Source: Cyanomargarita calcarea GSE-NOS-MK-12-04C
Lineage (GTDB): Bacteria > Cyanobacteriota > Cyanobacteriia > Cyanobacteriales > Nostocaceae
Assembly: GCA_019359595.1 (NCBI GenBank)
Contig: JAHHGZ010000029.1
Coordinates: forward strand, 253-64,252
DNA length: 64,000 nt
Direction: 5' to 3'
Under the pieces are notes generated by a model, which saw only the letters and a list, made by a program, of their open reading frames with translations, ran no database searches and was not told the DNA's origin. The stretch's first letter is position 1. Each line of letters opens with the position of its first letter. Shown here piece by piece: positions 5,026-55,432 of the stretch. The position numbers and the translations under genes are program-made.

Positions 5026-5113
5026 CTGGTGGATTAATGTCAGAAACCCGGATTTTTGGTTATTCCGAACGAAGTCACGAAAACAAAAGTGTGTATCCCG
5101 GAAAATTAATTTT

Positions 5114-7354: not shown

Positions 7355-7501
7355 TCTACCTTTGCAGGCTCTATAGATTTCTTATAAAAGTGACAAGAAA
7401 TAAATAATTAACCGCAGATGAACACGGATGGACGCAGATGAAAAACACTTTTGGACTATTGTCTAATATAGGCTGTTTCCTTTCTTCCAACCCTTGAAAT
7501 C

Positions 7502-10170: not shown

Positions 10171-10431
10171 AATTGAAAAATTCCCTCCTATTCTCTTATT
10201 TGCAGAAGAGTATCTACAGCAAATTTCAACTTTGTGAGGTACAGAAATACCCCTCCCCAACCCTCCCCTTGCCAAGGGGAGGGGGTGTACTTCATTTACT
10301 TGCAAAGTGCTGTATGAATTAACCACGAAGACGCAATAGGCGCTTTGCGGTTAATCAAAAAAAAGCCCTCACCACCAATAAAAAATCCCCTAACCAGTGC
10401 ATCAATCTAATTTCCAAACCTCCGAAAAAAT

Positions 10432-11913: not shown

Positions 11914-11991
11914 GATATTTATGTGTTTTTAAACCCATAATTTTCCCATTTTTCTATCTGCCTTCTACCTAATGCTTGAAAACCTAAAAAT

Positions 11992-13170: not shown

Positions 13171-14366
13171 AAGTTCTACATGTGATTGCCTCAATTGCAC
13201 CAGTGCGTGGTGGCCCCAGTCAAGCTGTGTTGGAGATGGTTAAGGCACAGAGAGACTGCGGTATTGATGCGTCGATTGCGACTACCAATGATAATGGGCC
13301 AAATCTGCTGGATGTAACTCTCCTTAAGCCTACAGAGTACCAACAAGTCCCAGTTTGGTTTTTTCCCCGTTTTTCTCCTTCACTGCACCCTGTAAGAGAA
13401 TTCGCTTTTTCTTTTAAGTTTACCGCTTGGCTGTGGCAAGAGATTCACCAATACGATTTGCTCCATGTCCATGCGATTTTTTCCTACCCTTCTACAGTCG
13501 CAATGGCGATCGCACGGAGGAAAAAAGTTCCGTATATCGCTCAACCCCACGGTTTACTCTGCGAGTGGTCTTTACAGCAAAGCACCGGCAGAAAGGAACT
13601 TTTTTTTAAGCTCTTTGAACAAGCGAATCTGAATCACAGTAAGTATATTCAGTTTACTACCCAGCAAGAACAGAAAGAAACTTCCCGCTTAAATCTGAGT
13701 TGCCCCAACTTAGTCATCCCTCTGGGTTTATCCATCTCTCCTACCATCAACAATGCTCGTCAACGTCTGCGGGAATATCTAGAAGTTCCAGCCGATGAAC
13801 CGATAATTTTATTTTTGTCTCGCTTCCATCATAAAAAAGGTCTGGATTATCTAATTCCAGCTTTAGGAAAATTATCAGATAAACGCTTCACCTTTGTCTT
13901 GGCAGGTAGCGGTTCTCCAGATTATGAAGCGGAAGTGGAATCTCTTTTAGTCACTCATGGAATTCGGCAACGTACCCATCTTGTGGGATTTGTCAAAGGA
14001 GAAAACAAAGATTTATTGCTTCAAGGAGCAGACTTATTTGCTCTAACTTCCCACTCAGAAAACTTTGGAGTTTCGGTTCTAGAAGCTCTAGCTGCAGGTA
14101 TTCCGGCTCTTTTAACTCCTGGTGTTGCTCTAGCCAAGATGGTTGAACAGCAAGACGTTGGCTATGTTACCCAACTAAATGTAGATGCGATCGCATCCAA
14201 GCTAAGGCAGGTTCTAGAGAATCCCCAACAAGCAAAAAATATGGGCGATCGCGCTCGTCAACTCCTAAATGAAAAGTATACCTGGACGCAGATTGCTTCT
14301 CAAATGCAGCAAGTTTACCAAGACATTCTGCCAAACAACTACTCTGCTCAAAAGGGAGAATCGTAG
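13167..14366 (+). CDS. glycosyltransferase family 4
   Basis: 399 aa with ENFGVSVLEALAAGIPALLTPGVALAKMV. An ATGA overlap with the upstream GT suggests translational coupling. Confidence 0.8.
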   Translation: MKVLHVIASIAPVRGGPSQAVLEMVKAQRDCGIDASIATTNDNGPNLLDVTLLKPTEYQQVPVWFFPRFSPSLHPVREFAFSFKFTAWLWQEIHQYDLLHVHAIFSYPSTVAMAIARRKKVPYIAQPHGLLCEWSLQQSTGRKELFFKLFEQANLNHSKYIQFTTQQEQKETSRLNLSCPNLVIPLGLSISPTINNARQRLREYLEVPADEPIILFLSRFHHKKGLDYLIPALGKLSDKRFTFVLAGSGSPDYEAEVESLLVTHGIRQRTHLVGFVKGENKDLLLQGADLFALTSHSENFGVSVLEALAAGIPALLTPGVALAKMVEQQDVGYVTQLNVDAIASKLRQVLENPQQAKNMGDRARQLLNEKYTWTQIASQMQQVYQDILPNNYSAQKGES

Positions 14367-15886
14367 TGATAAATAAAAGATGGAATTTTATCTGGTCACC
14401 TTACACAGTTTTTGGATTTATTCTCGGAATATCATCACCACTATTTTTTTTACGAGGTATTGGAATATTTGATGATTCAGTCTATTTAAAAATTGGCGAA
14501 TTAATTAATCAGGATTTATATCCTTACAGAGATGTTTTTGACAATAAGCCCCCTGGGATATATTATTTATCCGCACTGATAGCATGGATAGGTCAAAATC
14601 ACTGGCTAACAAATAGGATATTCTTATTTATATTTGCTGTCATTCTCGGATTTAGCGTAATTAGATATACCAAATCCATCTGGGGGAATCTCTCGGCATA
14701 TTTTGCAGCATTGATATTTGGAACCTCATATATTATTACCCAAGGCTATAGCTTTCACACAGAACAATTTTGTACAGCTTTAGGTTTTGCAGCCATTTAT
14801 CTTGTCTCTCAAAGAAGCTCAGAACGAATAACTAATTGGATGTTAACAGGCTGTTTTGTGGGTATGGCATTTATATTTAAACAAGTTGCCATCCTTTATC
14901 TAATGGCCTTTATCCTTTGTGAATTATTTCTAGCTTTAATCAAAACCATCAGTTTCACTATAGCCATTCGTCGATGTGTATTTTTACTAATAGGTTTCTG
15001 CCTATTCATAGCGATTCCCTTCACATGGCTTTTTGTTAATGGCTTCTGGAGTAATTTTTATAAGGATGTTTTTTTGGGAGTTGTTCCCTTCGCAGGAAAC
15101 GAAATAAATTTTATCGATATTCTCAAACTATGGCTGAGAGTTCCGGCCACGTTGCTAGTAATACCTTTGGCAGTTATATTTATAATTAATAAAAATCTGC
15201 GTACAAGTATTATCAACTCCAAGAATTTTCCAGAAATATTGATACTTGTAGTAACTGGATGTTTATCGCTGTTACCCACTCTCAAGGTAAATAGTAATAC
15301 CCATTACAGTGGTACGGCAATTTTGGCATTGAGTATTGCCGAATCGGTAATTATTAGTCAACTTTGTAACTCGAAAACTATATATTTTTCAAAAATAAAG
15401 AAAAATATCCAAAAAAAGTTGATTTTAGTGTGGAGCTTGTTATTCATTCCCTACCTAATTGGTATTTCTTGGGGTTCATTTTTAATGACAAAAGAAAATC
15501 GAATCGGATACGATTTGGCACAAATGCATGAGGTGAGAAATATTCTGAATCAACATCTAAACCCTTACGAACCCGTTCTCGTGTTGTCTGAAAATGCGGC
15601 TCGTCTCAACTATATGAGCGGACGACTTCCACTGACAAAATATATATATTACTACTGGAATACAGATATGAAGATTAACCAGGCAGCAAAACTTTTGTTT
15701 ACTTCCGAAGTCGCTGGGGCCATTCTGGAATTACCTAATGATACTCCGGTTAATTGGTTGTCAGAAAAAGAGCTTGATGACCTGAATAATAGATATTCAA
15801 AAATTGAATTATCTTCTCAGAATGCAGCCCATACAAATGGGAATAAAGTTGAGATTTTAATCAGTAAAAATAAGCGTGAGTCATAA
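14366..15886 (+). CDS. GT-C fold membrane glycosyltransferase (ArnT/PMT-like, GT39/GT83 family)
   Basis: 506 aa. The N-terminal half is polytopic with a DNKPPGIYYL loop motif typical of ArnT/PMT-type polyprenyl-phosphate-sugar-dependent transferases. The C-terminal part is soluble. Confidence 0.6.
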   Translation: MINKRWNFIWSPYTVFGFILGISSPLFFLRGIGIFDDSVYLKIGELINQDLYPYRDVFDNKPPGIYYLSALIAWIGQNHWLTNRIFLFIFAVILGFSVIRYTKSIWGNLSAYFAALIFGTSYIITQGYSFHTEQFCTALGFAAIYLVSQRSSERITNWMLTGCFVGMAFIFKQVAILYLMAFILCELFLALIKTISFTIAIRRCVFLLIGFCLFIAIPFTWLFVNGFWSNFYKDVFLGVVPFAGNEINFIDILKLWLRVPATLLVIPLAVIFIINKNLRTSIINSKNFPEILILVVTGCLSLLPTLKVNSNTHYSGTAILALSIAESVIISQLCNSKTIYFSKIKKNIQKKLILVWSLLFIPYLIGISWGSFLMTKENRIGYDLAQMHEVRNILNQHLNPYEPVLVLSENAARLNYMSGRLPLTKYIYYYWNTDMKINQAAKLLFTSEVAGAILELPNDTPVNWLSEKELDDLNNRYSKIELSSQNAAHTNGNKVEILISKNKRES

Positions 15887-15926
15887 GCATACCCCAGGTC
15901 AGGGGTGTATATACAAGTCGTAAAAA

Positions 15927-16010
15927 TTCTTCCTTCGTGACTTCGTTTCTTCGCGGTTAAAAACATAATATTCTTTTTTAACCACGAAGACACGAAGGAC
16001 ACGAAGGAAG
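15927..16010. repeat. imperfect inverted repeat/hairpin (TTCTTCCTTCGTGACTTCG ... CGAAGGACACGAAGGAAG)
   Basis: Direct inspection shows arms of about 34 nt that are reverse complements with a few mismatches around an AT-rich loop. A related core (TTAACCACGAAGAC) recurs at 10319. Confidence 0.5.
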
Positions 16011-16092
16011 ACAATAACGAACCTTTTGAGTGAAATTTTTAGGATTTGAGTTTTATATTGCCAACCTCTCATTGTACGAGGAGATTATTTAG

Positions 16093-17340
16093 ATGAAAGT
16101 TCGTCAAACTCGGATATATTCCAACCCGCTCTACAAAGAGTTCCAAATTCCAAAGGAACCCGATCTACCGAAGGGGACATCAAAATCAGTCTCTAAAACT
16201 TTTAAGTTGTCATTAGTAATTCCCACCTACAACGAAAAATTAAATATTCACAAGATAGTCCGACTGCTAACCAATCTACTTGAGCCGGCAATTCCCGGTG
16301 AATATGAATTGATTGTGGTGGATGATAATAGTCCCGATGAAACCTGGAAGGTAGCACAGGAAATCACGGCAGAATACCCACAATTAAAGGTAATCCGACG
16401 ACAAAATGAACGGGGTTTATCATCTGCTGTTGTGCGAGGTTGGCAAGCATCTACAGGTGAAATTTTGGGGGTAATCGACGCTGATTTACAACACCCACCG
16501 GAAGTATTATTACAACTGTTTAACGCTGTCAGACAGGGAACTGATTTAGCGGTTGCCAGTCGTCATATCACTGGTGGTGGAGTCAGCAATTGGAGTCTTC
16601 CCAGACGCATATTATCTAGAGGAGCGCAGACTTTAGGGTTGATTATCTTACCTCAAGTGATTGGTCGTGTCACAGATCCAATGAGTGGCTATTTTCTAGT
16701 GCGTCGCAGCGCAATTGCCGCAAAAACCCTACATCCTCTTGGCTACAAAATTCTGATTGAAGTATTAGGTCGTGGGGACATCCAAAAGATTGCTGAGGTA
16801 GGTTATGTATTTCAAGAACGGGAAGACGGAGAGAGTAAAGTTACTCACAAACAGTATGTAGAATATTTACAACACCTAATCAGACTGCGGCTTTCAAGAG
16901 GAAAAATTGGCTGGTTGCAACAGCGTTTCCCATTAGCTCAATTTCTCCGATTTGCCTTAGTCGGGCTGAGTGGTGTATTTGTAGACATGGCAATCTTTTA
17001 CTTACTGAGTGACCCATCAACACTACATTGGGGACTAACACGCAGCAAAATCATCTCAGCGGAATTAGCGATCGCGAATAATTTTCTGTGGAATGACTTT
17101 TGGACATTTAGAGAAATCAGTCACCACCAGAAAGGATGGAAAAAACGCTTTAAACGGTTTTTGAAATTTAATGTGGTTTGCTCTGTAGGGTTAGTTCTGA
17201 ATGTCCTACTGCTGAACTTATTATTCAATACTTTAGGCATCAATCGTTACCTAGCAAATCTACTCGCAATCGGCTTGATAACTTTCTGGAATTTTTGGAT
17301 CAACTTGAAATTAAGTTGGCGCAGTACGGACTCGGAATAA
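16093..17340 (+). CDS. polyprenyl-phosphate sugar synthase, GT2 (DPM1/ArnC/GtrB-like) fused to a C-terminal GtrA-like flippase domain
   Basis: 415 aa. The N-terminal GT2 shows LSLVIPTYNE, VVDDNSPDETW and DADLQHPPE motifs. The C-terminal ~120 aa has 4 TM with NNFLWNDFWTF (GtrA-like). Confidence 0.85.
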   Translation: MKVRQTRIYSNPLYKEFQIPKEPDLPKGTSKSVSKTFKLSLVIPTYNEKLNIHKIVRLLTNLLEPAIPGEYELIVVDDNSPDETWKVAQEITAEYPQLKVIRRQNERGLSSAVVRGWQASTGEILGVIDADLQHPPEVLLQLFNAVRQGTDLAVASRHITGGGVSNWSLPRRILSRGAQTLGLIILPQVIGRVTDPMSGYFLVRRSAIAAKTLHPLGYKILIEVLGRGDIQKIAEVGYVFQEREDGESKVTHKQYVEYLQHLIRLRLSRGKIGWLQQRFPLAQFLRFALVGLSGVFVDMAIFYLLSDPSTLHWGLTRSKIISAELAIANNFLWNDFWTFREISHHQKGWKKRFKRFLKFNVVCSVGLVLNVLLLNLLFNTLGINRYLANLLAIGLITFWNFWINLKLSWRSTDSE

Positions 17341-17378
17341 ATCTGTTTGGTTGTCCATATATTTATATCTTCATCCCC

Positions 17379-18152
17379 ATGTTACCAGAAATAACACCCT
17401 TAATCTTAACATTCAATGAAGCTCCTAATATCAAACGCACTCTCGAACGTTTGACATGGGCAAAGACAATTGTTGTCATCGACAGTTTTAGTACAGATGA
17501 AACTTTGGATATTTTATATTCCTACCCTCAAGTTCAAGTTTTCCAAAGAAAGTTTGATTCTTTTGCTACTCAATGTAACTACGGATTGACAAAAATTACA
17601 TCGGAATGGGTACTTTCTCTAGATGCTGATTATGTCTTAACCGATGAATTAATTGAAGAAATCCAAGCCTTAAAATCAGAAGCAGATATCAATTGTTACA
17701 GTGTTAGATTTAATTACTGCGTCTTTGGCAAACCTTTACGTGGTACCCTCCTACCACCACGCAAAGTACTTTACAGACGAGAAAAAGCAACATATCAAGA
17801 TGATGGACATGCCCATCGAGTTTGCGTCACAGGTAACTCAAAAATGCTTTTGGCCCATATCCATCATGACGATCGCAAACCTCTGAGCCGTTGGTTGTGG
17901 GCACAAGATCGTTACATGACGATCGAGATAAAGAAGTTATTAGAAACACCAGTTTCGGAATTAAGCTTAGGCGATCGCATCCGCAAACAAAAAATTCTGG
18001 CTCCTTTCATTATCTTAGTCTACTGCCTCATCCTCAAAGGTGGTATTCTCGATGGTTGGCGTGGTTGGTACTATGCCTTTCAACGAATGCTAGCCGAAAT
18101 CCTATTATCAATTCGGATGATTGAGTATAAAGACTTAAATGCAATTGAATAA
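17379..18152 (+). CDS. glycosyltransferase family 2
   Basis: The ORF-track frame opens at 17178, but the GT2 domain starts at ATG 17379 (MLPEITPLILTFNEAPNIKRT ... VVIDSFSTDETLDI). Confidence 0.75.
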   Translation: MLPEITPLILTFNEAPNIKRTLERLTWAKTIVVIDSFSTDETLDILYSYPQVQVFQRKFDSFATQCNYGLTKITSEWVLSLDADYVLTDELIEEIQALKSEADINCYSVRFNYCVFGKPLRGTLLPPRKVLYRREKATYQDDGHAHRVCVTGNSKMLLAHIHHDDRKPLSRWLWAQDRYMTIEIKKLLETPVSELSLGDRIRKQKILAPFIILVYCLILKGGILDGWRGWYYAFQRMLAEILLSIRMIEYKDLNAIE

Positions 18153-18174
18153 AGTATACATTTAACTTTTTGTA

Positions 18175-18304
18175 AGAGGGTAAAGACAACAGAACTAAAT
18201 CCACGCCACATGCTACAAGTCGGCAGAGCCAAGAAACGCAGTGGCTCCCCAAGTATGTTCAACTGTGAATTTCCTTCTCCCCCCAGAATTGGGGGTCAGG
18301 GGGC
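18175..18304. repeat. dispersed short repeat, family A copy (GTAAAGACAACAGAACTAAATCC ... CCCCCAGAATTGGGGG..CAGGGGGC)
   Basis: It shares its 5' 25 nt and 3' palindromic core with the copy at 54296-54397 and, in inverted orientation, with the tandem units at 30785-30950. Confidence 0.7.
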
Positions 18305-18346
18305 AATTCCTATAGGGTATCCAAAATCTCAAATCTCAAATCCAAA

Positions 18347-18907
18347 ATGTTACCCCGATTCAAAAAATATGGAATTTTCTTCCTAACAGGTTTGATTATT
18401 TTCCTGTTAAGTATAATTCCGCTGCGTGTTTTCATCGCTTCCTATCAAGCTCCTCATCCCCAAGCTATTCTGACTCTTGGTGGAGGTATGGAGAGGGAAA
18501 GATTTACTGCTGAATTTGCGAAATCTTATCCCAATTTAGATATTTGGGTTTCTACTGGCATTCCCCCAGACCAAGCTTTGCCAATGTTTCAAGCTGCAGA
18601 TATACCCAGTCAGCGCATACATTTAGATTATCGTGCTGTTGATACAGTGACCAATTTTACCAGTTTGGTTTCCGAATTTAAACAACGCCAAATTCATCAC
18701 TTATTCTTAATTACCGCTGACTTTCATATGCCCCGAGCCAAAGCGATCGCGACTTTCGTCCTCGGTAGTCAAGGTATTATTTTTACTTCCATTTCTATTC
18801 CAACCAACCAACCCAAAGAAACTTTGCTGCACATTCTCCGTGATAGCGCTCGCTCCCTGTTGTGGATTGTTACAGGTAGAACTGGAGCCAGCTTCAAGAC
18901 CGTTTAA
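18347..18907 (+). CDS. DUF218 (YdcF/ElyC/SanA-like) domain protein
   Basis: 186 aa with an N-terminal TM and a DUF218-like core (AILTLGGGMERERF ... YRAVDTVTNFTSL ... FLITADFHMPRA). Confidence 0.6.
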   Translation: MLPRFKKYGIFFLTGLIIFLLSIIPLRVFIASYQAPHPQAILTLGGGMERERFTAEFAKSYPNLDIWVSTGIPPDQALPMFQAADIPSQRIHLDYRAVDTVTNFTSLVSEFKQRQIHHLFLITADFHMPRAKAIATFVLGSQGIIFTSISIPTNQPKETLLHILRDSARSLLWIVTGRTGASFKTV

Positions 18908-18957
18908 TATGAACTACGGACATAATATGAGCCAAAAAATCTAAAATCCAAAATCCT

Positions 18958-19512
18958 ATGCGTTTAGATAACTATAACCTTGGCACTTACACTCCGGGCG
19001 CACCCTACTGGAAGCAACTTTTATGGTACTTTATCGGGTCGCCTTTGGTTGAAAGTTACTGGCTTCCTTTGAACAATTTCAAAGTTTCCTTACTCCGGAG
19101 TTTTGGCGCTAAAATTGGTCAAGGAGTCCGGATTAAAAACGGAGTGCGGGTCAAGTTTCCTTGGCGGTTAACTGTCGGCAATCATGTATGGATCGGCGAA
19201 GATGCTTGGATTGATAACCTTGCTGATGTTACCATCGAAAGTCATGCTTGCATATCTCAAGGCGTTTATCTCTGTACTGGCAATCATGACTGGAATCATC
19301 CCGATTTTAAACTGATTCCCGCCCCAATCTACATTCAAGAAAGTAGTTGGATTGCAGCTAAATCGATAATTGGGCCTGGTGTGACAATTGGTCGAGGAGC
19401 AGTGCTGACTCTCGGTGGAGTGACTGGACGTTCCTTAGAACCGATGACAGTTTATGCCGGGAATCCTGCAGAACCGATAAAGAAGAGGAAAATAACGGAT
19501 ATACGGATGTGA
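18958..19512 (+). CDS. hexapeptide-repeat acetyltransferase, WcaF-like (polysaccharide O-acetyltransferase)
   Basis: 184 aa. It has a left-handed beta-helix hexapeptide pattern (GNHVWIGEDAWIDNLADVTIESHACISQGVYLCTGNHDW..) and high similarity to colanic-acid WcaF-type enzymes. Confidence 0.8.
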   Translation: MRLDNYNLGTYTPGAPYWKQLLWYFIGSPLVESYWLPLNNFKVSLLRSFGAKIGQGVRIKNGVRVKFPWRLTVGNHVWIGEDAWIDNLADVTIESHACISQGVYLCTGNHDWNHPDFKLIPAPIYIQESSWIAAKSIIGPGVTIGRGAVLTLGGVTGRSLEPMTVYAGNPAEPIKKRKITDIRM

Positions 19513-19527
19513 CGGATATCTTCCACC

Positions 19528-19610
19528 AATCCCAATAAGCCCGGAAATAAATTTCACAGCTTTAAGCCTAAACCCATTAAAATGGGTTAAAAAGCTTATT
19601 CAGTAAGCTA
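19528..19610. repeat. partial copy of repeat family B containing hairpin AACCCATTAAAATGGGTT
   Basis: The hairpin at 19571-19588 is identical to 27340-27357. The flanking AGCCCGGAAATAAATT resembles the TIR of the 27.3 kb element. Confidence 0.55.
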
Positions 19611-20134
19611 AAAGCGAAAGCTTTGATATCCAAATGCGTCACATACCAGTCTTTATAAGTACCAGCAACTAAATTTTCTTCAATCAACCGTGCTTCTTCC
19701 AAAAGTGTCCACAAGTTGTGGGTGGCTCGATTCCAAAAGCCTACACTTCCATTTTCTTGAAGACCAGCAACACCATAAATTTTACAAGCTGGACATTGAC
19801 ATTTTTCTAAGTGTTTTAACTCGTCTTGACGAGGAATTGGGCACCAGTCAGGTTTAGCACCTTGAATAAATTCTTCATAGTCGTTTGTTGTTATTTCCCC
19901 ACCACGACTAATAAAGTAGAACGCTCCATTGTCAAGGTAAAGCTTTACTTCTTCCGGGATGCCAAGATATTCTCTAAGACCTTGTTTCATAACTTTACGT
20001 CGAAGCACGGGTCTTTGATGAAATTCGGCGTAGGAAACCATAACTGCTCGCAATTGTGGAAGATAATAAGGAGAGTTTTTATCCCACACGCGAGGTTTGA
20101 TTCCCTTCAGACTGATACCAGCAACAATTTGCAT
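19577..20134 (-). CDS. short tRNA-guanine-transglycosylase (TGT)-like zinc-motif protein
   Basis: 185 aa. CQCPACK followed 20 residues later by ATHNL reproduces the TGT CxCxxC...H zinc site. LYLDNGAFYFISRGGE resembles the TGT catalytic Asp segment (FDCVMPTRNARNG). Only about half of a TGT barrel is present. Confidence 0.4.
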   Translation of the reverse strand: MQIVAGISLKGIKPRVWDKNSPYYLPQLRAVMVSYAEFHQRPVLRRKVMKQGLREYLGIPEEVKLYLDNGAFYFISRGGEITTNDYEEFIQGAKPDWCPIPRQDELKHLEKCQCPACKIYGVAGLQENGSVGFWNRATHNLWTLLEEARLIEENLVAGTYKDWYVTHLDIKAFAFSLLNKLFNPF

Positions 20135-20460
20135 TAATCATCATATCTAGCGATCGCTCTTAACAATTCTGATTGGGAGCGCTTACGTTGCGAACAACCG
20201 AGGATTAGTAGATTTTGGCTGTGTGTAGAGACTTCGCTTGTAAGGTTATCAAGACTATCTTGATCACAAAACTTAACCATTTTAGATGCCATTCCACACG
20301 TAAAGCGCCATACTCGATGAAAAACGCTGATTTTATGAATTACCCCCTGTAACACTAACTCACCCACTACCAAAATCCTCAACTCCGTCACCCACCTCAA
20401 AGCCTCATCATTGATTAAAAACGCTTTGCAGCGAGCCGTCAAAGCCGCCGCAACCTGCAA
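20134..20460 (-). CDS. hypothetical protein, translationally coupled to the TGT-like ORF
   Basis: 108 aa. Its stop overlaps the downstream ATG (ATGA) and it has no recognisable motif. Confidence 0.3.
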   Translation of the reverse strand: MQVAAALTARCKAFLINDEALRWVTELRILVVGELVLQGVIHKISVFHRVWRFTCGMASKMVKFCDQDSLDNLTSEVSTHSQNLLILGCSQRKRSQSELLRAIARYDD

Positions 20461-20637: not shown

Positions 20638-21423
20638 CTATGTACTCTGCTGTGCGGCAGACTGGACAGCTTCTACATCAACATTAAGCTGTTGAGCAAT
20701 CTGCTCCACGCTCATCCCTGCTTTTAGTAACAGAGGCACAGTTGCTCTCAATATTTCTTCCCTGCCGTCAGCTTTCGCTTCTTGATAAAACCTTGTTTGC
20801 TCTAAAGTTAGTCCCAGCATAGCTTCCACTTCCTCTCTACTCAAAAACGAAAATTTATAAACGGCGATTGTTGTAATAATATCTATTATTTCGCTTTTCG
20901 GCAGTGTGTCTGTTTCTTCTAATTATACCCGCTCAATTAACAGACGAGCTTGCTCCGCCATTGCTTTCTCTGAGGCAATTGTCAACTGCATTAAATTTAT
21001 GGCTACTGGTAGGGTATTGGGAGTGCCCAACTCATCTAAGTAAATGCGCTGTACTTGGTTACTGTTCAAAAATATTCGATGAGTTTTTTTATCGCTTGGT
21101 TCCAAATTGCGGGATGGAAAAATTACGACACAGTACCAGTCATCATATTGAGACTGATTCCGGTTTAAATACATCATTGACTCAGTAAACAATCGATGGT
21201 GTAGAGCTTCATCTTTCTGGAATTGAACTTCTGCGAAAAAAATGATTCTGGGTGTTGTACCCTCTGGAGGTAAAAATACTCCATCAATCCGGAAAGCGGT
21301 TTCTTTTACCTCAACTGATTCAAATCGATAGTTTTGTGCCTGTTGGGGACGGTCATCAACGAATTCAAAAAGCAACCCAGGAAAACGCTTAAAAATTTGG
21401 TAATAAATAGAGTCGCGTCTCAC
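20638..21423 (-). pseudogene. Rpn-family recombination-promoting nuclease/putative transposase (PD-(D/E)XK + DUF4351) interrupted by one in-frame TAA
   Basis: The 166-aa ORF (20923-21423, FFAEVQFQKD core) and the 68-aa ORF (20638-20844, SREEVEAMLGLTLEQTRFYQEAKADGREEIL) are in the same frame. The 26 intervening codons translate to LEETDTLPKSEIIDIITTIAVYKFSFL, matching the family consensus. Only the TAA at 20923-20925 separates them. Confidence 0.7.
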
Positions 21424-21634
21424 TCAACTATCCTAAAATTTACTGATTATTCAATGTTTATTTTATCGCTAAATTGGCACCATAAATTATCTAAGTTTGG
21501 CAGCAGTTTTTAGATAATTTATCTATGTTTTTGGTCAGTACCAAGATACTTTGTGTACATCCCACTATTGAGTAGTAATATATATGTCAGAGTAATCACT
21601 CTCATCAGAAACCCAAGGGATAAGTCAGGTTGCT

Positions 21635-22909
21635 ATGACTCATTTTGGTATTATCTGTCCAGCATCTACAGGTCACCTCAATACGATGTTTCCTTTAGGA
21701 AGGGAACTGCAAAGGCGCGGTCATTGCGTTACATTATTGGGAATTCTTGATCTCCAAGCGAAAGCGATCGCAGCAGGATTAGAATTTCAGGCGATCGCAG
21801 AATCTGATTCTCCTTTGGGGTCGATGGAAAAAATCTTTGCAAAGATAGGGGAACTAAGTGGTTCGGCTGCCATCCGTTTTACTGTCGGAGCGCTGAAAAA
21901 TGCTAGCGTGGCAATCTTACGGGATGCTCCGGATGCAATCAAACAAGTGGGTATCGAAGCGCTGTTGGTGGATCAACTTTGCCCTGCGGGTGGGACTGTT
22001 GCCGAATATTTAGGTATACCCTTCATAACCGTGTGCAGTGCTGTGGTCATGAATCAAGAAGATGGCGTTCCCCCTTGGTTTAAGGTATGGAGTTATAACC
22101 CCGGATGGTGGGCACGTGTACGCAACCAAATTAGTCACTCGGCAATGAATCGGATTGCCAAACCGATTCAAGAACCGATAATCGAGTATCGCCAACGCTG
22201 GAATTTGCCACAACACTCGAATCGCAGCGATGCTTACTCTAAACTAGCAATTATCAGCCAACAGCCAGCGGAGTTTGAATTTCCCCGGCGCAATTTGCCC
22301 CCATACTTCCACTTTACAGGCCCATATCACGACTCAACAGGACGGCCAGGGGTTGATTTCCCCTTTGAAAAGCTGAACGGGAAACCCCTAATCTACGCTT
22401 CAATGGGAACCCTACAAAATCGTTTGCAATCTGTTTTTCAAACCATCGCCGAAGCTTGTGTGGGTTTGGATGCTCAATTGGTAATTTCTCTTGGTGGCGC
22501 ACTCGAACCCGAGGGGCTGAAATTATCCGGTGAACCTTTGGTAGTGAAATATGCACCGCAACTAGAATTACTGCAAAAAGCTAGCCTTGTTATCACTCAC
22601 GCCGGACTGAATACCACCTTAGAATCACTGAAGAATGCTGTGCCGATGGTTGCAATACCCGTTACCAACGACCAACCGGGAGTAGCTGCACGGATAGCTT
22701 GGACTGGTGCGGGAGAACTTGTGCCCCTCGACAAATTGAGTGTTCCTAAATTGCGAGATGCTATTTCTAGGGTGCTGACGCAAGAGTCTTATAAACAAAA
22801 TGCAGTTAGGTTGCAAGAAGCTATTGCCTCTGCTGGGGGGGTGAGTCGCGCTATTGATATTGTGGAAAATGCGATATCTACAGGAAAGGCGATTATACAA
22901 AGCGCCTAA
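21635..22909 (+). CDS. GT1 UDP-glycosyltransferase (MGT/macrolide-glycosyltransferase-like)
   Basis: 424 aa. The N-terminal region is GHLNTMFPLGRELQRRGH and the C-terminal UDPGT signature region is VITHAGLNTTLESLKNAVPMVAIPVTNDQPGVAARI. Confidence 0.8.
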   Translation: MTHFGIICPASTGHLNTMFPLGRELQRRGHCVTLLGILDLQAKAIAAGLEFQAIAESDSPLGSMEKIFAKIGELSGSAAIRFTVGALKNASVAILRDAPDAIKQVGIEALLVDQLCPAGGTVAEYLGIPFITVCSAVVMNQEDGVPPWFKVWSYNPGWWARVRNQISHSAMNRIAKPIQEPIIEYRQRWNLPQHSNRSDAYSKLAIISQQPAEFEFPRRNLPPYFHFTGPYHDSTGRPGVDFPFEKLNGKPLIYASMGTLQNRLQSVFQTIAEACVGLDAQLVISLGGALEPEGLKLSGEPLVVKYAPQLELLQKASLVITHAGLNTTLESLKNAVPMVAIPVTNDQPGVAARIAWTGAGELVPLDKLSVPKLRDAISRVLTQESYKQNAVRLQEAIASAGGVSRAIDIVENAISTGKAIIQSA

Positions 22910-22945
22910 CTCGGAAAAAATCAACTGCTTTCTACAACACTAATT

Positions 22946-24292
22946 ATGAACTACCCCAATAGAAAACTTGGTTTAATTGAGAACTTGTTCGATATTATTC
23001 ATGATTTAGGCGGCATGATTGATGTCAATGTTGCTCGCATAGAAGGGTCAATAACACCTGTAATTCTGCAACAGGCTCTCGATTTATTACAAAAGCGTCA
23101 TCCAATGCTTCAATTTCATATTGTTAAGTTGGAAGATGGAGCTTATTTTCAATCAAAAGGTACAACAAAAATACCTCTACGTGTCATAGATAAGCAAAAT
23201 GAGAATCAATGGCTGCAAATTGCTGAAGATGAGTTACACGAAAAATTTCCTAACGATACTAGTCCTCTTTGTCGGGTGACTTTGCTAAGTTCTGCAGAAA
23301 ACAGTATTAGTGAAATAATTGCAACATTTCATCACGCGATAACTGATGGAATTTCATGTATGTTGTTTATTGATGAACTATTGTCCTACTGTCAAAAAAT
23401 CGCTGCTGATGAGGATATACCCTTATTTGTGACAATGCAACTACTTCCGGCACTAGAGAACTTGATTGACAGCAGCCTTACTAGTAAAAATAACATTGTC
23501 GAAGAGCAAACCAAGGAGGTAATCCCTACACCCCAGTTAATTATTGAAGAAGAAGCACCTATAAGCGATCGCCGCACTTGTCTTGTACCCCGAATCCTCA
23601 ATAAAGAAATGACTATTATGCTGATAAACCGTTGCAAGCAAGAGGAAACAACGGTTCATGGAGCCTTATGTGCGGCAATGTTATCGGCAGTAGCAGAAAA
23701 TGCTTTTACTGGAACTATAAATTTATCCTGTGGTTCAAACGTAAATTTACGACAATCTTGTCAACCTGAAGTGGCTACTAACTATATAGGTTGCTTTATA
23801 TCTATTGTAGAAGAAATTCATACCTTAGAAGAAAATACTAAATTTTGGGATTTGGCACGGGAATGTAAATCCAAAATTAGTCATTCTATTAGTTTAGGAA
23901 TTCCAATTAATCGTATTTGTGACGCTAAATTGCAATATGTAAATCAGGATATGATTCTTGAAATTTCTAAGCATCAAATGGGACGAAAAAATACAATAGA
24001 GTTATCAAATCGTGGCAAATTCAATGTTGCTAAAAAATATGGTGAATTAAAACTGAAAGAGTTATATTTTGCTACGGGACAGCATTTGGTTGGTGGTTCT
24101 TTTTGGTTAGGTGTAGTAACTTTTCACGAACAGCTATTTTGTACTTTTGCCCATATCGTTCCTCTAGTAAGTACTAAGACAGCAGAGTTATTAGCAGATT
24201 CTGTTATGGTCAATATCCAGAAAGCATGTATGTCTGAATCTTTTACATTGAGTAAGTTAAATGAAAATGAAGTTGCTTTTTCAAAGGATTAA
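22946..24292 (+). CDS. stand-alone condensation-domain acyltransferase (HHxxxDG; NRPS C-domain / PapA5 / WS-DGAT-like)
   Basis: 448 aa with an HHAITDGIS active-site motif at about residue 130. Its size and layout match free-standing C-domain O-acyltransferases. Confidence 0.6.
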   Translation: MNYPNRKLGLIENLFDIIHDLGGMIDVNVARIEGSITPVILQQALDLLQKRHPMLQFHIVKLEDGAYFQSKGTTKIPLRVIDKQNENQWLQIAEDELHEKFPNDTSPLCRVTLLSSAENSISEIIATFHHAITDGISCMLFIDELLSYCQKIAADEDIPLFVTMQLLPALENLIDSSLTSKNNIVEEQTKEVIPTPQLIIEEEAPISDRRTCLVPRILNKEMTIMLINRCKQEETTVHGALCAAMLSAVAENAFTGTINLSCGSNVNLRQSCQPEVATNYIGCFISIVEEIHTLEENTKFWDLARECKSKISHSISLGIPINRICDAKLQYVNQDMILEISKHQMGRKNTIELSNRGKFNVAKKYGELKLKELYFATGQHLVGGSFWLGVVTFHEQLFCTFAHIVPLVSTKTAELLADSVMVNIQKACMSESFTLSKLNENEVAFSKD

Positions 24293-24312
24293 TCAGCCCC
24301 AAGAGAAAAAAT

Positions 24313-25581
24313 ATGCGAATTACAATTTTAACAGTTGGAACACGCGGTGATGTCCAACCTTACATTGCTCTGGGGCTGGGTTTACAAGCTGCTGGTCACA
24401 AAGTGCGACTAGCAACAAATGCTCTGTTTCATGAGTTCGTCATCAGTCACGGGCTGGACTTCGCTCCGGTGGGAGGTAATCCCCAAGAAATTATCAAGCG
24501 GTTGAAGACTGAAGCCAGCAAGAGCAATAAAACATTATTACCAAAAAAATTGCAATTGAAGGCGCAATTTTGGCGAATTTTCTGCTCAGGGCTTGAACGT
24601 CTCATAGCTGATTCCTGGGATGCATGTCAGGACGCAGAAGCTATAATCTATTCCCAGCTAGCGTTACCCGGTTATCATATTGCTGAGAAGTTGGGAATAC
24701 CTGGGTATGCAGCCTATACACACCCTTTTACCCGCACTCGTACTTTCCCTCACCCACTCAATAAATTCGATTTTCATTTGGGTGGTACCTTCAACTGGTT
24801 GACTTACATCTTTGAAGAACAAGTATGGTGGCAATTTACTAAAAAAATAATCAATCAGTGGCGAGAGGAAACCCTTAAGCTACCTTCAATTCCTCCGATT
24901 GGTCTTTATCGTCGGCAGCAAAAGCAGCAGATCCCCATTCTCTATTGCTATAGCTCTGCTGTAGTTCCAAAGCCGCTTGATTGGCCTGATTGGGTACATC
25001 TGACAGGTTACTGGTTCTTAGATTGCCCGTCAGACTGGCAACCACCAACAGATTTGGTTGATTTTCTAGCTGCTGGCCCGCCGCCAGTGTATATAGGTTT
25101 CGGCAGCATGAGTGGTCTTAAACCAGAAGCATTGACAGAGTTAGTACTGGAAGTTCTAGTTAGGACTGGACAGAGGGGTATATTGCTAACCGGGTGGGGT
25201 GGTTTGAGTAATGCCGATTTACCTGATAATGTGCTTAAAATTGCATCGGCTCCCCATGATTGGTTGTTTCCTCAAATGGCCGCAGTGGTTCATCATGGTG
25301 GCGCTGGTACAACGGCAGCTGGTCTGCGTGCTGGTATACCCTCTGTGATCATCCCCTTTGGTGCCGAACAGCCTTTTTGGGGACAGCGAGTAGCTGACTT
25401 GGGTGTGGGTTCTGCGCTTATACCGCAAACAGACTTGACGGTAGAGGTATTAGCATCTGCGATTAAGACCGTCACAAGCGACGAGTCGATGAAAGCTCGC
25501 GCTCATGCTTTAGGGGAAAAAATTCGCTCAGAAGATGGTGTGGCAAAGGCACTCGAAATTTTTCATCGCTATCTGCCCTAA
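24313..25581 (+). CDS. GT1 UDP-glucosyltransferase (sterol/lipid glucosyltransferase-like, GT28 N-terminus + UDPGT C-terminus)
   Basis: 422 aa with MRITILTVGTRGDVQPYIALGLGLQAAGH and a C-terminal HHGGAGTTAAGLRAGIPSVIIPFGAEQPFW. Confidence 0.8.
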   Translation: MRITILTVGTRGDVQPYIALGLGLQAAGHKVRLATNALFHEFVISHGLDFAPVGGNPQEIIKRLKTEASKSNKTLLPKKLQLKAQFWRIFCSGLERLIADSWDACQDAEAIIYSQLALPGYHIAEKLGIPGYAAYTHPFTRTRTFPHPLNKFDFHLGGTFNWLTYIFEEQVWWQFTKKIINQWREETLKLPSIPPIGLYRRQQKQQIPILYCYSSAVVPKPLDWPDWVHLTGYWFLDCPSDWQPPTDLVDFLAAGPPPVYIGFGSMSGLKPEALTELVLEVLVRTGQRGILLTGWGGLSNADLPDNVLKIASAPHDWLFPQMAAVVHHGGAGTTAAGLRAGIPSVIIPFGAEQPFWGQRVADLGVGSALIPQTDLTVEVLASAIKTVTSDESMKARAHALGEKIRSEDGVAKALEIFHRYLP

Positions 25582-25669
25582 CCTTAGGCATCAAGTAAAA
25601 ATAAGTAGTGCGTTAGCGTAGCGTGTCCGTAGGCCAAACATCTTGCTCGCACTACAAATATCAAATTGT

Positions 25670-27064
25670 TCAACTTATTTTTACACGACTCTCCAAAATC
25701 CGCTGATTTTGAGGACGTTTCCCCGTTACCACCATTGGCACACCTCCTGATGGCCCCAACAGAGCGCCTTTACGTGTTGGCTGCACTGCTTTGGTATCCG
25801 CAAGCGCCATCTGCCAATTAGATAGAACTGTCGCCAAAACGAGTTTCATCTCAAGTAAAGCAAATGCCATGCCAATACAGCGCCGATTTCCACCACCAAA
25901 TGGCAAATACTCAGAGGGAGTAAATTGACGTTCTAGAAAACGTTCTGGCTTAAACTGCTTGGAATCGGGATATAAATCTTCTTGATGATGGGTGAGATAA
26001 ATACAAGGAATTACCAAAGTTCCGGGCTGCAATTGGTAGTCCATAATTTCTAGTGGTGATTTGACCACGCGATTTAATGCCAACATTGCCACCGGATAAA
26101 GGCGTAATGTTTCAGAACAGACAGCATTTAAATAAGGCAATCGCAAAATAGTATTTGGATCGGGTTTTTCACCCAAGCTATCCAACTCTTGTACCAGTTT
26201 CTCTCGCACAAGAGGCAAATGGTGAATCCAGTACAATGCCCAAGCTAATGAAGTTGCAGTGGTTTCGTGACCTGCGACCAACAGAGTGATTAATTCATCA
26301 CGTAGCTCTACATCCGTCATCGGCTGCCCCTCTTCGTCGCGAGCAGCCATCATCAAAGACAGGATATCACTGCGAGAAGGGTCTGGTTGCTCTTTGCGTT
26401 CCTGAATCTCGGCGTATATCAGTTCGTCCATTTGCTCCTTCAAACGCAGGAACTTTCCCCAAGGACTCCACGCACCTAAATCAGTTTGCAGTGATGGAAA
26501 AACAATTGCCATTGCCAAAAAGAACGGTTGCTGGGGATTCAAGATTTCAAGTAGAAGTGCTTTGAGTTTTTCGTAACGCAGTCCTGACTCTAGACCAAAT
26601 ACGGCACTCAAAATAACCTGGAAGGAGATTGCTTGCATTGAAGGAAGGACTTTGAAAGGTTCGCCAACCTTCCATTGACTAGTCACTTGCTCCGTGATGT
26701 CGGCGATCGCCTCACTGTAAGCCAGCATCCGTTCCCCATGCAAAGGGGGTGTTAAGAGCTTGCGCTGCCGTTGGTGGGGCTTGCCGGATAGCGCCAACAT
26801 TGATTGCTGCCCTAGCAAAGGCGATTTAATACCTGCTGCTTCACCAGAGTCCAACTGTTTTGGATCGGTGGAAAAAATCTGCCCAATTGCTTTGGGGTTG
26901 CTAATGAATACTTGAGGAGCAAATACTGGACCAATCCGCAGGGTGAAGATGTCACCATAATGTTTAGCACAGGTTTCCATATATTCCAAGGGGTTAGTCA
27001 GCCACTGGAATGTTTGTACCCACGGGTGAGTCTTGGGACCATTAGGTAGTTGATGTGCAGGCAT
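25670..27064 (-). CDS. cytochrome P450
   Basis: 464 aa with the heme-thiolate loop FGGGNRRCIGMAFA, an EXXR (ETLRL) and an oxygen-binding AGHETT. Confidence 0.9.
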   Translation of the reverse strand: MPAHQLPNGPKTHPWVQTFQWLTNPLEYMETCAKHYGDIFTLRIGPVFAPQVFISNPKAIGQIFSTDPKQLDSGEAAGIKSPLLGQQSMLALSGKPHQRQRKLLTPPLHGERMLAYSEAIADITEQVTSQWKVGEPFKVLPSMQAISFQVILSAVFGLESGLRYEKLKALLLEILNPQQPFFLAMAIVFPSLQTDLGAWSPWGKFLRLKEQMDELIYAEIQERKEQPDPSRSDILSLMMAARDEEGQPMTDVELRDELITLLVAGHETTATSLAWALYWIHHLPLVREKLVQELDSLGEKPDPNTILRLPYLNAVCSETLRLYPVAMLALNRVVKSPLEIMDYQLQPGTLVIPCIYLTHHQEDLYPDSKQFKPERFLERQFTPSEYLPFGGGNRRCIGMAFALLEMKLVLATVLSNWQMALADTKAVQPTRKGALLGPSGGVPMVVTGKRPQNQRILESRVKIS

Positions 27065-27252
27065 TTTTTTCTCACTATAAATGAAGTAAGACTGAAATCA
27101 GCTGATAAATCATGCACGTTTGGCTTGATTCATTTTAGGACAGGGATGGGACTATGAGTTTAATAGTTGTAATTTCAATCAACTTATGCGGCAACTCCTG
27201 TTGTAACGGATGTAACTCACATCTTGCACCAATGTCAGGAAGCCCAGAATTC

Positions 27253-27411
27253 AGCCCTGAAATAAATTACTCGCTCCGCGAGAAGCAAGCTACACAGCTT
27301 TTAGCTTAAGTAAGCGGTCATCTTACTAAATAAGTTTTTAACCCATTAAAATGGGTTAAAGCTTTAAGCCCGTTCGCGCAGCGTCCCGAAGGGATAATTT
27401 ATTTCAGGGCT
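27253..27411. mobile_element. MITE-like element with 17-bp perfect terminal inverted repeats (AGCCCTGAAATAAATTA) enclosing hairpin AACCCATTAAAATGGGTT
   Basis: The TIRs at 27253-27269 and 27395-27411 are exact reverse complements. The internal hairpin is identical to 19571-19588. The element has no coding capacity and lies in a convergent intergenic region. Confidence 0.6.
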
Positions 27412-27419
27412 AAAAATGT

Positions 27420-27452
27420 CCTAACTCCTAACTCCTAACTCCTAACTCCTCC
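27420..27452. repeat. heptanucleotide microsatellite (CCTAACT)x4
   Basis: A direct tandem repeat is visible immediately right of the MITE-like element. Confidence 0.8.
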
Positions 27453-27497
27453 TAAAATTAAAAATATGTGGTTTATACGCAAGGGGCAAGATATGAT

Positions 27498-28307
27498 TTA
27501 CATCCGTTTTATATCCATTGCCAGTAGTTCCTGAATTTTTTTAGGACTCAATTCCTGCACATTCCCTAAAACGATCGCCGCTCCCGCTTTTAATAGTATC
27601 TGAGTATATGCATCACGAACCTCTACAGTCTGCTGCACATGGGGTGGTAAAACACCTACAGCAATCCAAGTGCGGTTCGGATGGAGTTTTCGTGCTTTCT
27701 CCACTGTGTACATATCCGCTACCGTATCTCCTACGTAAACTACAGGTGTATTTTCCTGCTCTTCATTTTCTAGCAGTTGCAGCGTAGCGAAAAGTCCGGT
27801 AGGGTCTGGTTTACTGGGGGCATCTTCCATTGCAATCAATACTGGTGACTTTAAATCGAGGCGTTTTTCCAAAATATAGGTTGCACTCAAGCGAGTCGCA
27901 CCGCTGAAAAAGCCCCAAGGAATTTCAGCTAATGTCAATTGTTCTAAATAACTGGGCTGTAATAATAAAGGCTCGTCACATATGTACCCATTCCAGTTGT
28001 CCGGGTCAGTACCACGGTAACGAGATTGAAAAAAAGCGACAATAGTGTTGTAATCCAGTTTTTTGCTTTCGCGTGACTGCCCTTGAGTTTCAAAATGGCG
28101 ATAAATAAATTCTTGTGAGGCTTCCCAATCGTTATTCCAGATGCCTTCAGACTTGAGTTTGTCAATATCTCCTGGTGTCGGACGATACGTATCCCCAGTA
28201 AAATGTTCTACAGTATCTGCGATCGCACGCCGATAGGAACCTGATACATCGCGTACTACACCATCAATATCGAAAATCACAATAGCACTTGTTGAGGATT
28301 CAGTCAT
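27498..28307 (-). CDS. HAD-superfamily hydrolase
   Basis: 269 aa with an N-terminal IVIFDIDGVV (DxDG motif I) and later VGDTVAD (motif IV). Confidence 0.7.
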   Translation of the reverse strand: MTESSTSAIVIFDIDGVVRDVSGSYRRAIADTVEHFTGDTYRPTPGDIDKLKSEGIWNNDWEASQEFIYRHFETQGQSRESKKLDYNTIVAFFQSRYRGTDPDNWNGYICDEPLLLQPSYLEQLTLAEIPWGFFSGATRLSATYILEKRLDLKSPVLIAMEDAPSKPDPTGLFATLQLLENEEQENTPVVYVGDTVADMYTVEKARKLHPNRTWIAVGVLPPHVQQTVEVRDAYTQILLKAGAAIVLGNVQELSPKKIQELLAMDIKRM

Positions 28308-54912: not shown

Positions 54913-54973
54913 TCAAAGAATTTAGTTGAATTTAACCAAATCACCCCTTTTCTACATTTTAGAGGTTATTACC

Positions 54974-55384: not shown

Positions 55385-55432
55385 TTTGCATTGTCACGGC
55401 AATTCTAGAATTTCATTTTTTGGAGTTCATTT

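Follow-up and report, generated by a model that had tools for sequence, protein, structure and literature searches.

What can two glycosyltransferases, a stand-alone condensation-domain protein and a cytochrome P450 be making together where no gene for a scaffold synthase accompanies them? This question is raised by a four-gene islet in the genome of the cyanobacterium Cyanomargarita calcarea GSE-NOS-MK-12-04C, located in a 64,000-nucleotide (nt) stretch of contig JAHHGZ010000029.1 (positions 253 to 64,252), which is referred to as a whole as the window. The islet and the region preceding it are as follows, each gene being defined by its open reading frame (ORF) and domain matches:

21424..21634, + strand: intergenic region upstream of GT1a, the presumed promoter region of a three-gene operon (211-nt gap between an Rpn/DUF2887 gene and the GT1a start codon)
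21635-22909, + strand: GT1a, a UDP-glycosyltransferase of the GT1 family, 424 aa (ORF, Pfam/NCBIfam)
22946-24292, + strand: stand-alone condensation-superfamily (C-domain) protein, 448 aa (ORF, Pfam)
24313-25581, + strand: GT1b, a UGT51/UGT80-type (sterol-glucosyltransferase-like) GT1 enzyme, 422 aa (ORF, Pfam)
25670-27064, - strand: probable CYP110-family cytochrome P450, convergent with the GT1a-C-domain-GT1b operon, 464 aa (ORF, Pfam)

An earlier note, made from the sequence alone, had read this islet as a compact pathway for a hydroxylated, di-glycosylated and acylated lipid. Its observation is confirmed and its interpretation is partly supported. The ORF list gave the positions, the strands, the gaps of less than 40 nt between the co-directional genes and the convergent P450 exactly as claimed (36 nt between GT1a and the C-domain gene, 20 nt between the C-domain gene and GT1b, and 88 nt between GT1b and the P450), and Pfam and NCBIfam bore out the domain calls for all four genes. 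None of the four proteins has a predicted membrane segment, and GT1a and GT1b share merely 24% identity, indicating that they are not recent duplicates. Scans of 21300-27600 for consensus promoters and terminators returned sites no commoner than in shuffled controls, and the operon boundaries are thus drawn from spacing. As to what the genes do together, we suggest, with a probability of about 45%, that the islet is a variant of a tailoring-only locus widespread in cyanobacteria, which turns a hydroxylated lipophilic metabolite from primary metabolism into a decorated glycoside.

The window proteins were mapped onto about 25 independent loci. We found exactly the same arrangement of all four genes in two Nostoc-type contigs (L014 and L051), where it is preceded by hisA, ruvB and a TPR gene and followed by HAD, DUF29, PSRP3, STK and Band7 genes, with identities to the window of 76% for the C-domain protein, 68% for GT1b and 81% for the P450. 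The grouping of the four genes is therefore more than chance. Okeania has orthologues of GT1a (58%), the C-domain protein (46%) and GT1b (62-65%) together in a single locus with flanks other than those of the window, along with NTP-transferase, MFS, GT4, sulfotransferase and methyltransferase genes. This points to a module formed by the three co-directional genes, in agreement with the earlier note. Of approximately 20 de-duplicated loci having at least 1.3 kb of upstream sequence, 15 have GT1a ahead of the C-domain gene, and a PF00685 sulfotransferase stands alongside GT1a in six independent loci. The partner genes found elsewhere (sulfotransferase, GT4, GT11, methyltransferase and MFS) all have hydroxyl-decorating or export functions. 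Annotation of the window proteins with Pfam and NCBIfam revealed no polyketide synthase (PKS), nonribosomal peptide synthetase (NRPS), terpene synthase or acyl ligase in the 64 kb, and no scaffold synthase gene was present in any of the related loci either; the acceptor must consequently be made elsewhere, as had been proposed. One neighbour, the HAD gene downstream of the P450, was considered as a further pathway member and rejected, being absent from every version outside the Nostocales.

Not all four genes are equally constant. GT1a, the C-domain gene and the convergent P450 occur without GT1b in four loci (L002, L003, L005 and L025) and with a GT4 gene before the P450 in L011, and GT1a is followed directly by the convergent P450 in Fortiea and L013. 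Chlorogloeopsis fritschii PCC 9212 likewise has GT1a, the C-domain gene and the P450. GT1b is optional, most Nostocales loci either lacking it or having GT4 instead. A heterocyst-type glycolipid, one of the products suggested earlier, is unlikely: the module is also present in the non-heterocystous genera Crocosphaera, Okeania and Crinalium, on which ground we reject this reading, and the window lacks the PKS and Dev genes.

GT1a matched the Pfam UDPGT family with 84.4 bits (cutoff 19.5), as well as EryCIII-like_C, and stayed below the curated macrolide-type model of NCBIfam (TIGR01426 MGT, 177.4 bits versus a cutoff of 260). By these scores, it is a member of the GT1/UDPGT superfamily outside the curated MGT subfamily. 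Its best 120 homologues, at 63-71% identity, came from Nostocales, Oscillatoriales, Chroococcales and Pleurocapsales, so that GT1a belongs to a large, slowly evolving, phylum-wide cyanobacterial orthologue group; it is the conserved anchor of the locus. Many of these orthologues carry the automatic Joint Genome Institute (JGI) label "zeaxanthin glucosyltransferase", and the closest characterised homologue that we found is Pantoea CrtX, an enzyme placing sugar on a lipophilic hydroxyl, with 31-32% identity over the full length and about 220 bits, as compared with 24-27% for macrolide glycosyltransferases. The Pantoea genes used for comparison are on plasmids, where crtX was confirmed to lie between crtE and crtY (crtE-X-Y-I-B). 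An identification of GT1a as CrtX is not supported, as this identity is below orthology and crt/cru genes are absent from the window and the approximately 25 loci. The best matches in PDB were Bacillus YojK/YjiC and OleD; a macrolide-resistance function was also rejected, since the resistance-type NCBIfam models scored far below cutoff and GT1a is a phylum-wide chromosomal orthologue. The gene slr1125 of Synechocystis may be an orthologue, which is to be taken as a lead, and a literature search on slr1125 found no functional data.

Within its group the GT1a of the window is unusually divergent, sharing 58-66% identity with the GT1a proteins of the other loci, which are mostly 68-77% identical among themselves. 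In other Nostocales hisA, ruvB and a TPR gene precede the GT1a locus; nowhere in the window is there a counterpart of the ruvB and TPR genes that Nostoc, Chlorogloeopsis and Fortiea have upstream of GT1a, and this upstream synteny is replaced by the Rpn fragment and an exopolysaccharide (EPS) cluster. The divergence and the replaced synteny together suggest that the upstream part of the locus has been rearranged or imported.

Relatives of GT1a were also seen in other surroundings. Plasmid pC052_E of Nostoc sp. C052 carries, at approximately 177.7-192 kb (L043/L045), a GT1a paralogue of 63% identity in an uncharacterised cluster comprising SDR, nitric-oxide-synthase oxygenase, a further SDR, fatty-acid desaturase, class III aminotransferase, SRPBCC, GNAT, acyl-CoA dehydrogenase, glycosyltransferase and formyltransferase genes and a DevBCA-type exporter. 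In two Crocosphaera loci an LpxD-like N-acyltransferase gene lies directly upstream of GT1a (L009, 6610-7653; L050, 7959-8999), with a gap of 1 nt in L050; in L009 it is preceded by an Arn-like set of GT2, formyltransferase, methyltransferase and DegT aminotransferase genes. This adjacency raises the possibility that GT1a is tied there to the modification of lipid A or another envelope lipid.

GT1b, with a Glyco_transf_28 N-terminal domain and EryCIII-like_C in Pfam, showed high similarity to the yeast sterol 3-beta-glucosyltransferase UGT51 (5xvm; E 1e-94, 43% identity over 400 aligned residues). Residues 4-418 align with residues 23-436 of 5xvm, and the nucleotide-sugar motif HHGGAGT is present; based on this similarity over the full catalytic domain, GT1b can be assigned to the UGT51/UGT80 family. 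Its orthologues share 68% identity in L014 and L051 and 62-65% in Okeania, and Nostoc plasmids frequently carry paralogues of 45-49% identity.

The C-domain protein scored above cutoff with three Pfam models, Condensation (66.3 bits, cutoff 30.6), PapA_C (49.6 bits, cutoff 30) and AATase (51 bits), and contains the motif HHAITDG at residues 129-135. Across 115 homologues, D134 and G135 do not vary, and each of the two histidines (H129 and H130) shows a conservation of 90% or more. In an AlphaFold2 model built from the alignment of these 115 sequences (pLDDT 91.1), the top Foldseek matches were all C-family or E-family domains, led by AzeD (8s6l; template-modelling (TM) score 0.81-0.83, 24% identity), whereas PapA5 (1q9j) gave TM scores of 0.65-0.76 at 14-16% identity. 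The predicted fold and the HHxxxDG motif place the protein in the condensation-domain superfamily of NRPS. AzeD was also its top sequence match in PDB (E 2e-27, the next match being 1e-4), and 1q9j fell short of E 0.01 in phmmer. A profile search at E<=1e-30 retrieved 1,246 representative clusters (50% identity), about 11 of which form a tight cyanobacterial family; its next relatives are uncharacterised proteins of Planctomycetota and Oscillatoriales, and the homologues are all stand-alone proteins of about 430-460 aa. Distant paralogues on plasmids of Calothrix, Nostoc UHCC 0302 and Crinalium were set aside, as their gene contexts were uninformative.

What the C-domain protein catalyses is less certain than its fold. 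The dehydratase AzeD is the protein on which a "C_standalone" clade was founded; the other proteins of that clade are functionally unknown, and the authors of the AzeD study tied the chemistry of AzeD to a His-to-Pro change giving PHxxxDG (bioRxiv 10.64898/2026.07.17.738954). This dehydratase signature is not found in the C-domain protein, which retains HHAITDG, and the retention of HHxxxDG throughout the family makes acyl transfer the likelier, not established, chemistry. We therefore regard the protein, from its motif and profile matches, as a probable O-acyltransferase acting on a glycoside. The earlier note had called it an acyltransferase outright; the C-domain fold and the PapA_C match speak for that label, but it is made insecure by the dehydratase AzeD being the closest solved relative and PapA5 being more distant.

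Pairwise identity matrices and nucleotide alignments of Nostoc loci revealed a feature that had no place in the earlier note's reading. Three near-identical Nostoc backgrounds, with identities of 96-100% for GT1a, 93-97% for the P450 and 91-99% for the flanks at the nucleotide level, carry differing inserts between GT1a and the P450. For example, the nucleotide sequences of L014 and L025 match at 97-99% until the 3' end of GT1a is reached, and once more from the P450 stop codon onwards, but in the stretch between the C-domain genes share only 69% nt (56% aa) identity and GT1b is missing from L025. In L011 the C-domain allele is of the Okeania type (47% identical) and is accompanied by GT4, while L003 has the C-domain allele of L014 (91% nt) without GT1b, the difference between the two being a clean indel. 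The recombination breakpoints are sharp and located at the 3' ends of GT1a and the P450. GT1a and the P450 are thus the conserved partners, and the C-domain gene and the extra glycosyltransferase (GT1b, GT4 or none) vary; the sharp breakpoints and differing inserts indicate that these two anchors enclose an exchangeable cassette, namely the C-domain(+GT) segment, and related strains are accordingly predicted to make differently decorated versions of one core glycoside. Patterns of this kind are typical of loci on which diversifying selection acts, surface-glycan loci among them. In L021 (7100-11359), the C-domain gene is apparently frameshifted, with an ORF of 334 aa where the match spans about 450 aa, and the place of GT1a before it is taken by a DDE transposase gene and a GT11-type glycosyltransferase gene, which we take as a further sign of cassette turnover.

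The second anchor, the P450, matched Pfam p450 with 283 bits, and its heme loop (FGGGNRRCIG), ExxR motif (ETLR) and AGHET motif are all intact. Orthologues at 74-83% identity are present in very many Nostocales, and the name CYP110 derives from the JGI label "cytochrome P450 family 110" on these orthologues. Its PDB matches included xenobiotic CYP3A enzymes, CYP97A3/LUT5 and CYP120A1, with CYP120, CYP51, CYP4 and BM3 scoring about equally. According to a review, one member of CYP110 binds C10-C20 fatty acids, and its role as an omega-hydroxylase is a proposal (PMC9214053). Outside the Nostocales, P450s 58-64% identical to that of the window accompany GT1a in three loci with three differing gene orders: P450 (58%), GT1a, sulfotransferase and C-domain gene in L015; GT1a, GT1a, reverse-strand P450 (63%), C-domain gene, GT4, reverse-strand sulfotransferase and reverse-strand MFS in L023; and, in L050 from Crocosphaera XPORK-15E, GT1a followed on the reverse strand by a sulfotransferase, a GT1b fragment and two P450s (64% and 60%). 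The presence of the same subfamily beside GT1a in three non-syntenic orders speaks for GT1a and the P450 being functionally linked. In Nostoc punctiforme (L012), the first 39 residues of GT1a (9676-9795, 70% identity) remain as a remnant adjoining an intact P450, which documents a deletion of the GT/C-domain cassette and makes this strain a natural null host for complementation.

Based on the chemistry of the respective families, the following steps may be proposed. The CYP110 P450 would introduce or expose a hydroxyl group on a hydrophobic acceptor, the leading candidate being a long-chain fatty acyl or alkyl chain, followed by a carotenoid or hopanoid. GT1a would then attach the first hexose from a UDP-sugar, and GT1b would add a second sugar, either onto the first or onto a second hydroxyl. 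The C-domain enzyme would esterify a hydroxyl of the sugar or the aglycone from an acyl thioester. As far as is known, cyanobacteria activate fatty acids to acyl carrier protein (ACP) and not to coenzyme A, and the donor would therefore probably be acyl-ACP. Other lineages would add sulfate, further sugars or an exporter to the glycoside. A fatty acyl or alkyl acceptor is weakly favoured by the fatty-acid binding of CYP110, the context of the GT1a paralogue on pC052_E and the sophorolipid-like gene content; the similarity to CrtX may keep carotenoids in play, and that to UGT51 may do the same for polycyclic isoprenoids, such as hopanoids. To our knowledge, most cyanobacteria do not make sterols, and the acceptor of GT1b is thus probably different from a sterol.

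Several points weigh against this proposal, and other explanations may be considered. The likelihoods of these explanations are not additive, and the two that we take up first, concerning the P450 and the C-domain protein, each alter one step of the model. The P450 may be just a syntenic neighbour, the functional unit being the three-gene operon, or GT1a and the C-domain gene, acting on an already hydroxylated acceptor. The P450 is on the opposite strand from the operon and forms a separate transcription unit; together with the HAD gene, it belongs to a synteny conserved across the Nostocales at 75-83% identity, in the manner of housekeeping flanks; no P450 is present in the loci of Okeania hirsuta, Crocosphaera (L009) and Crinalium; and in N. 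punctiforme the HAD and P450 genes are intact after loss of all but the GT1a remnant, which implies that the P450 cannot depend on the glycosyltransferases. An inherited synteny is nevertheless hard-pressed to explain the same-subfamily P450s adjoining GT1a in three orders outside the Nostocales, with two copies in L050, or the location of the cassette breakpoints at the 3' ends of both GT1a and the P450. We consider this explanation doubtful, although a serious competitor, and view the P450 as a conserved Nostocales flank that is also, as its gene contexts suggest, a probable, non-obligate functional partner hydroxylating the acceptor; its place in the islet, as drawn in the earlier note, needs to be qualified accordingly. 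The C-domain protein, for its part, might carry out an AzeD-like dehydration or another reaction (lactonisation or epimerisation) on the glycoside or aglycone, with the rest of the model unchanged. It scored far below the cutoffs of the NCBIfam PapA5 models (NF006787, 62.3 versus 396 bits; NF006788, 18 versus 539; NF006790, 32.1 versus 716), so that it appears to lie outside the curated PapA5/phthiocerol dimycocerosyl transferase family. Moreover, its nearest solved relative, AzeD, is a proven dehydratase that ranks best both by sequence (the only PDB match below 1e-4) and by fold, the functions of other C_standalone proteins are open, and an acyl carrier or ligase gene is linked in no locus. 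This alternative seems unlikely to us, as the chemistry of AzeD is tied to PHxxxDG and the present family has HHxxxDG with both His residues conserved, PapA_C and the alcohol-acetyltransferase model scored above cutoff, the identity to AzeD is merely 24%, and the neighbours (glycosyltransferases, sulfotransferases and methyltransferase) all transfer groups onto hydroxyls.

Other points bear on the proposal as a whole. We infer that the aglycone is a lipid, and nothing in the loci identifies it as one; acyl carrier, acyl ligase and exporter genes are missing from the window; about one-quarter of the C-domain homologues have no GT1a nearby (L010, L018, L021, L024 and L026); and literature searches for PapA5-like cyanobacterial enzymes, for CYP110 with glycosyltransferases and for P450/GT/acyltransferase glycolipid clusters found no description, product or experiment for this gene set. 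The genes might instead serve conjugation and detoxification, with the P450 as phase I and the UDP-glycosyltransferases, sulfotransferase and acyl(malonyl)transferase-like enzyme as phase II, acting promiscuously on exogenous or damaged lipophiles as do the CYP/UGT/SULT systems of plants and animals. Such a role would fit the absence of scaffold genes from the loci, the recurrence of exactly P450, PF00201 UDPGT and PF00685 Sulfotransfer_1 as partners, the MFS efflux gene in Okeania and L023, and a variable cassette suited to shifting substrate spectra; xenobiotic CYP3A enzymes are among the best PDB matches of the P450, and the structural relatives of GT1a are YojK/YjiC of Bacillus, which are promiscuous, and the macrolide glycosyltransferase OleD. 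A single, slowly evolving, phylum-wide GT1a orthologue group, however, fits a fixed endogenous substrate better, the CYP3A similarity is generic to class II-like P450s, and no typical xenobiotic-response regulator is adjacent in the window, rendering detoxification rather improbable. Less probable again is a thermozeaxanthin-like carotenoid glycoside ester, for which GT1a would be a true CrtX-type enzyme, the P450 a carotenoid hydroxylase and the C-domain protein the enzyme esterifying the sugar with a fatty acid. In its favour are the rank of CrtX among the characterised homologues of GT1a, ahead of the macrolide enzymes, the JGI label, the carotenoid hydroxylase CYP97A3/LUT5 and the retinoid hydroxylase CYP120A1 among the P450 matches, and the existence of bacterial carotenoid glucoside fatty-acid esters, such as the thermozeaxanthins (PMC5884252). 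However, an identity of about 31% is far below orthology, the label is automatic, the P450 similarity is non-specific, and neither the window nor any related locus has crt or cru genes. Furthermore, we know of no zeaxanthin glycosides or acylated carotenoid glycosides reported from Nostocales, and the glycosylated carotenoids of this order, the myxol glycosides, are attributed to CruG.

A bolder extension of the tailoring-locus proposal, which we put forward tentatively as a possibility less likely than the proposal itself, is that the locus is the small-molecule counterpart of an O-antigen or capsule diversity locus. GT1a and CYP110 would be the anchors and the C-domain/GT cassette, with a sulfotransferase elsewhere, the exchanged part, yielding decorated amphiphilic glycosides that differ from strain to strain; diversifying selection would act on them, for instance through symbiotic recognition or the evasion of phages and grazers. 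In that case, C_standalone would gain in the C-domain family its first functional branch acting on glycosides. If the tailoring-locus proposal is true, a near-universal glycosyltransferase mislabelled "zeaxanthin glucosyltransferase" and a widespread CYP110 P450 would gain a pathway context, and acylated or sulfated glycosides that vary between strains, as a class so far unrecognised, would be expected in Nostoc, Crocosphaera, Okeania and Microcoleus. A function for the stand-alone C-domain family, whose sole characterised member is a distant dehydratase, would annotate many proteins. The cassette polymorphism also provides natural near-isogenic comparisons for product discovery by comparative metabolomics.

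Other features of the window are as follows:

137-19512: Wzy-type EPS cluster, with a Wzz/Wzc-like gene (137-2194, - strand), five GT4 genes, a flippase (8674-10170), and PMT_2, GT2-GtrA, GT2, DUF218 and hexapeptide acyltransferase genes
19577-20460, - strand: two overlapping ORFs of 185 and 108 aa, flanked by the EPS cluster and the Rpn fragment
20923..21423, - strand: truncated Rpn/DUF2887 recombination-promoting nuclease/putative transposase gene, the upstream boundary
Downstream of the islet: HAD, PSRP-3, STK-WD40 kinase and Band7 genes, then signalling and secreted-protein genes
41515-46137, + strand: nSTAND1 NTPase of 1540 aa with about 13 WD40 repeats
46986-48446, - strand: Ser/Thr protein kinase fused with a GUN4 (porphyrin-binding) domain
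50934-52040: DUF1822 gene
54505-60981, + strand: run of co-directional genes with domains mirroring plant pathogenesis-related proteins, namely CAP/PR-1-like (54505-54912), LysM+3D (55433-55978), LysM with GH19 class I chitinase (56141-57064), thaumatin (57644-58561), GH18 (58747-59889) and astacin protease (59992-60981)

The EPS cluster was considered as a functional partner of the islet and rejected, as the adjacency is confined to this genome. The Rpn/DUF2887 gene, in which Pfam DUF2887 spans 163 of 200 profile positions and TIGR01784 scored under its cutoff, marks the synteny break and is outside the pathway. No significant Pfam or NCBIfam family match was obtained for the two ORFs at 19577-20460, and Rfam and tRNA scans of the window detected no RNA element and no tRNA. 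The pairing of kinase and GUN4 is unusual and could link tetrapyrrole status to phosphorylation signalling. In Chlorogloeopsis (L006), DUF1822 adjoins CHAT and TPR proteins. From its domains, the run at 54505-60981 would seem to equip this cyanobacterium with secreted proteins directed at chitin or at fungi.

Among known systems, the sophorolipid cluster of Starmerella bombicola consists of CYP52M1, UgtA1, UgtB1, an acetyltransferase and a multidrug resistance (MDR) transporter. The gene content of the present islet corresponds to its enzyme logic, in which a P450 hydroxylates a fatty acid from primary metabolism, two GT1 enzymes work in turn, the sugar is acylated and no dedicated scaffold synthase is involved. 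The sophorolipid cluster differs in being fungal, in an acyltransferase that is not of the C-domain fold and in its exporter, which is absent from the window and has an MFS counterpart only in the Okeania and L023 versions; the P450 here is probably of the CYP110 and not of the CYP52 family, its linkage is not obligate, and the sulfotransferase and GT4 variants and the cassette swapping seen here have no counterpart in the sophorolipid system. The CrtX and carotenoid-glycoside-ester pathways (Pantoea crtEXYIBZ and the Thermus thermozeaxanthins) give fatty-acid esters of glycosylated lipophilic alcohols (PMC5884252), the class to which the product here would also belong, but carotenoid genes are linked in no locus here and the acyltransferase is of a different type. 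The eukaryotic UGT51-type enzymes possess an N-terminal PH/GRAM region; GT1b aligns end to end with the catalytic domain of UGT51/UGT80, with which it has the motif HHGG(A/S)GTT in common, and consists of the catalytic domain only. AzeD, from the azetidomonamide pathway of Pseudomonas aeruginosa, is similarly a stand-alone C-family protein of about 450 aa, but it is a PHxxxDG dehydratase in an NRPS cluster, whereas the C-domain protein here has HHxxxDG and is linked to glycosyltransferases and never to NRPS or PKS. In mycobacteria, PapA5 serves the synthesis of phthiocerol dimycocerosate (PDIM), and PapA1 and PapA2 act with the Stf0 sulfotransferase for sulfolipid-1. These are also stand-alone HHxxxDG enzymes of the C superfamily that O-acylate hydroxyls of lipids or sugars, and the sulfolipid-1 locus is called to mind by the Okeania and Crocosphaera versions, in which a sulfotransferase and a transporter are co-located; however, the identity is only 14-16%, no PKS is linked here and the partners are glycosyltransferases. 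The present locus is thus set apart from the sophorolipid, thermozeaxanthin and PapA-sulfolipid clusters by the combination of a C_standalone/PapA-like enzyme, the absence of a scaffold gene, phylum-wide GT1 and CYP110 anchors and a cassette swapped by recombination.

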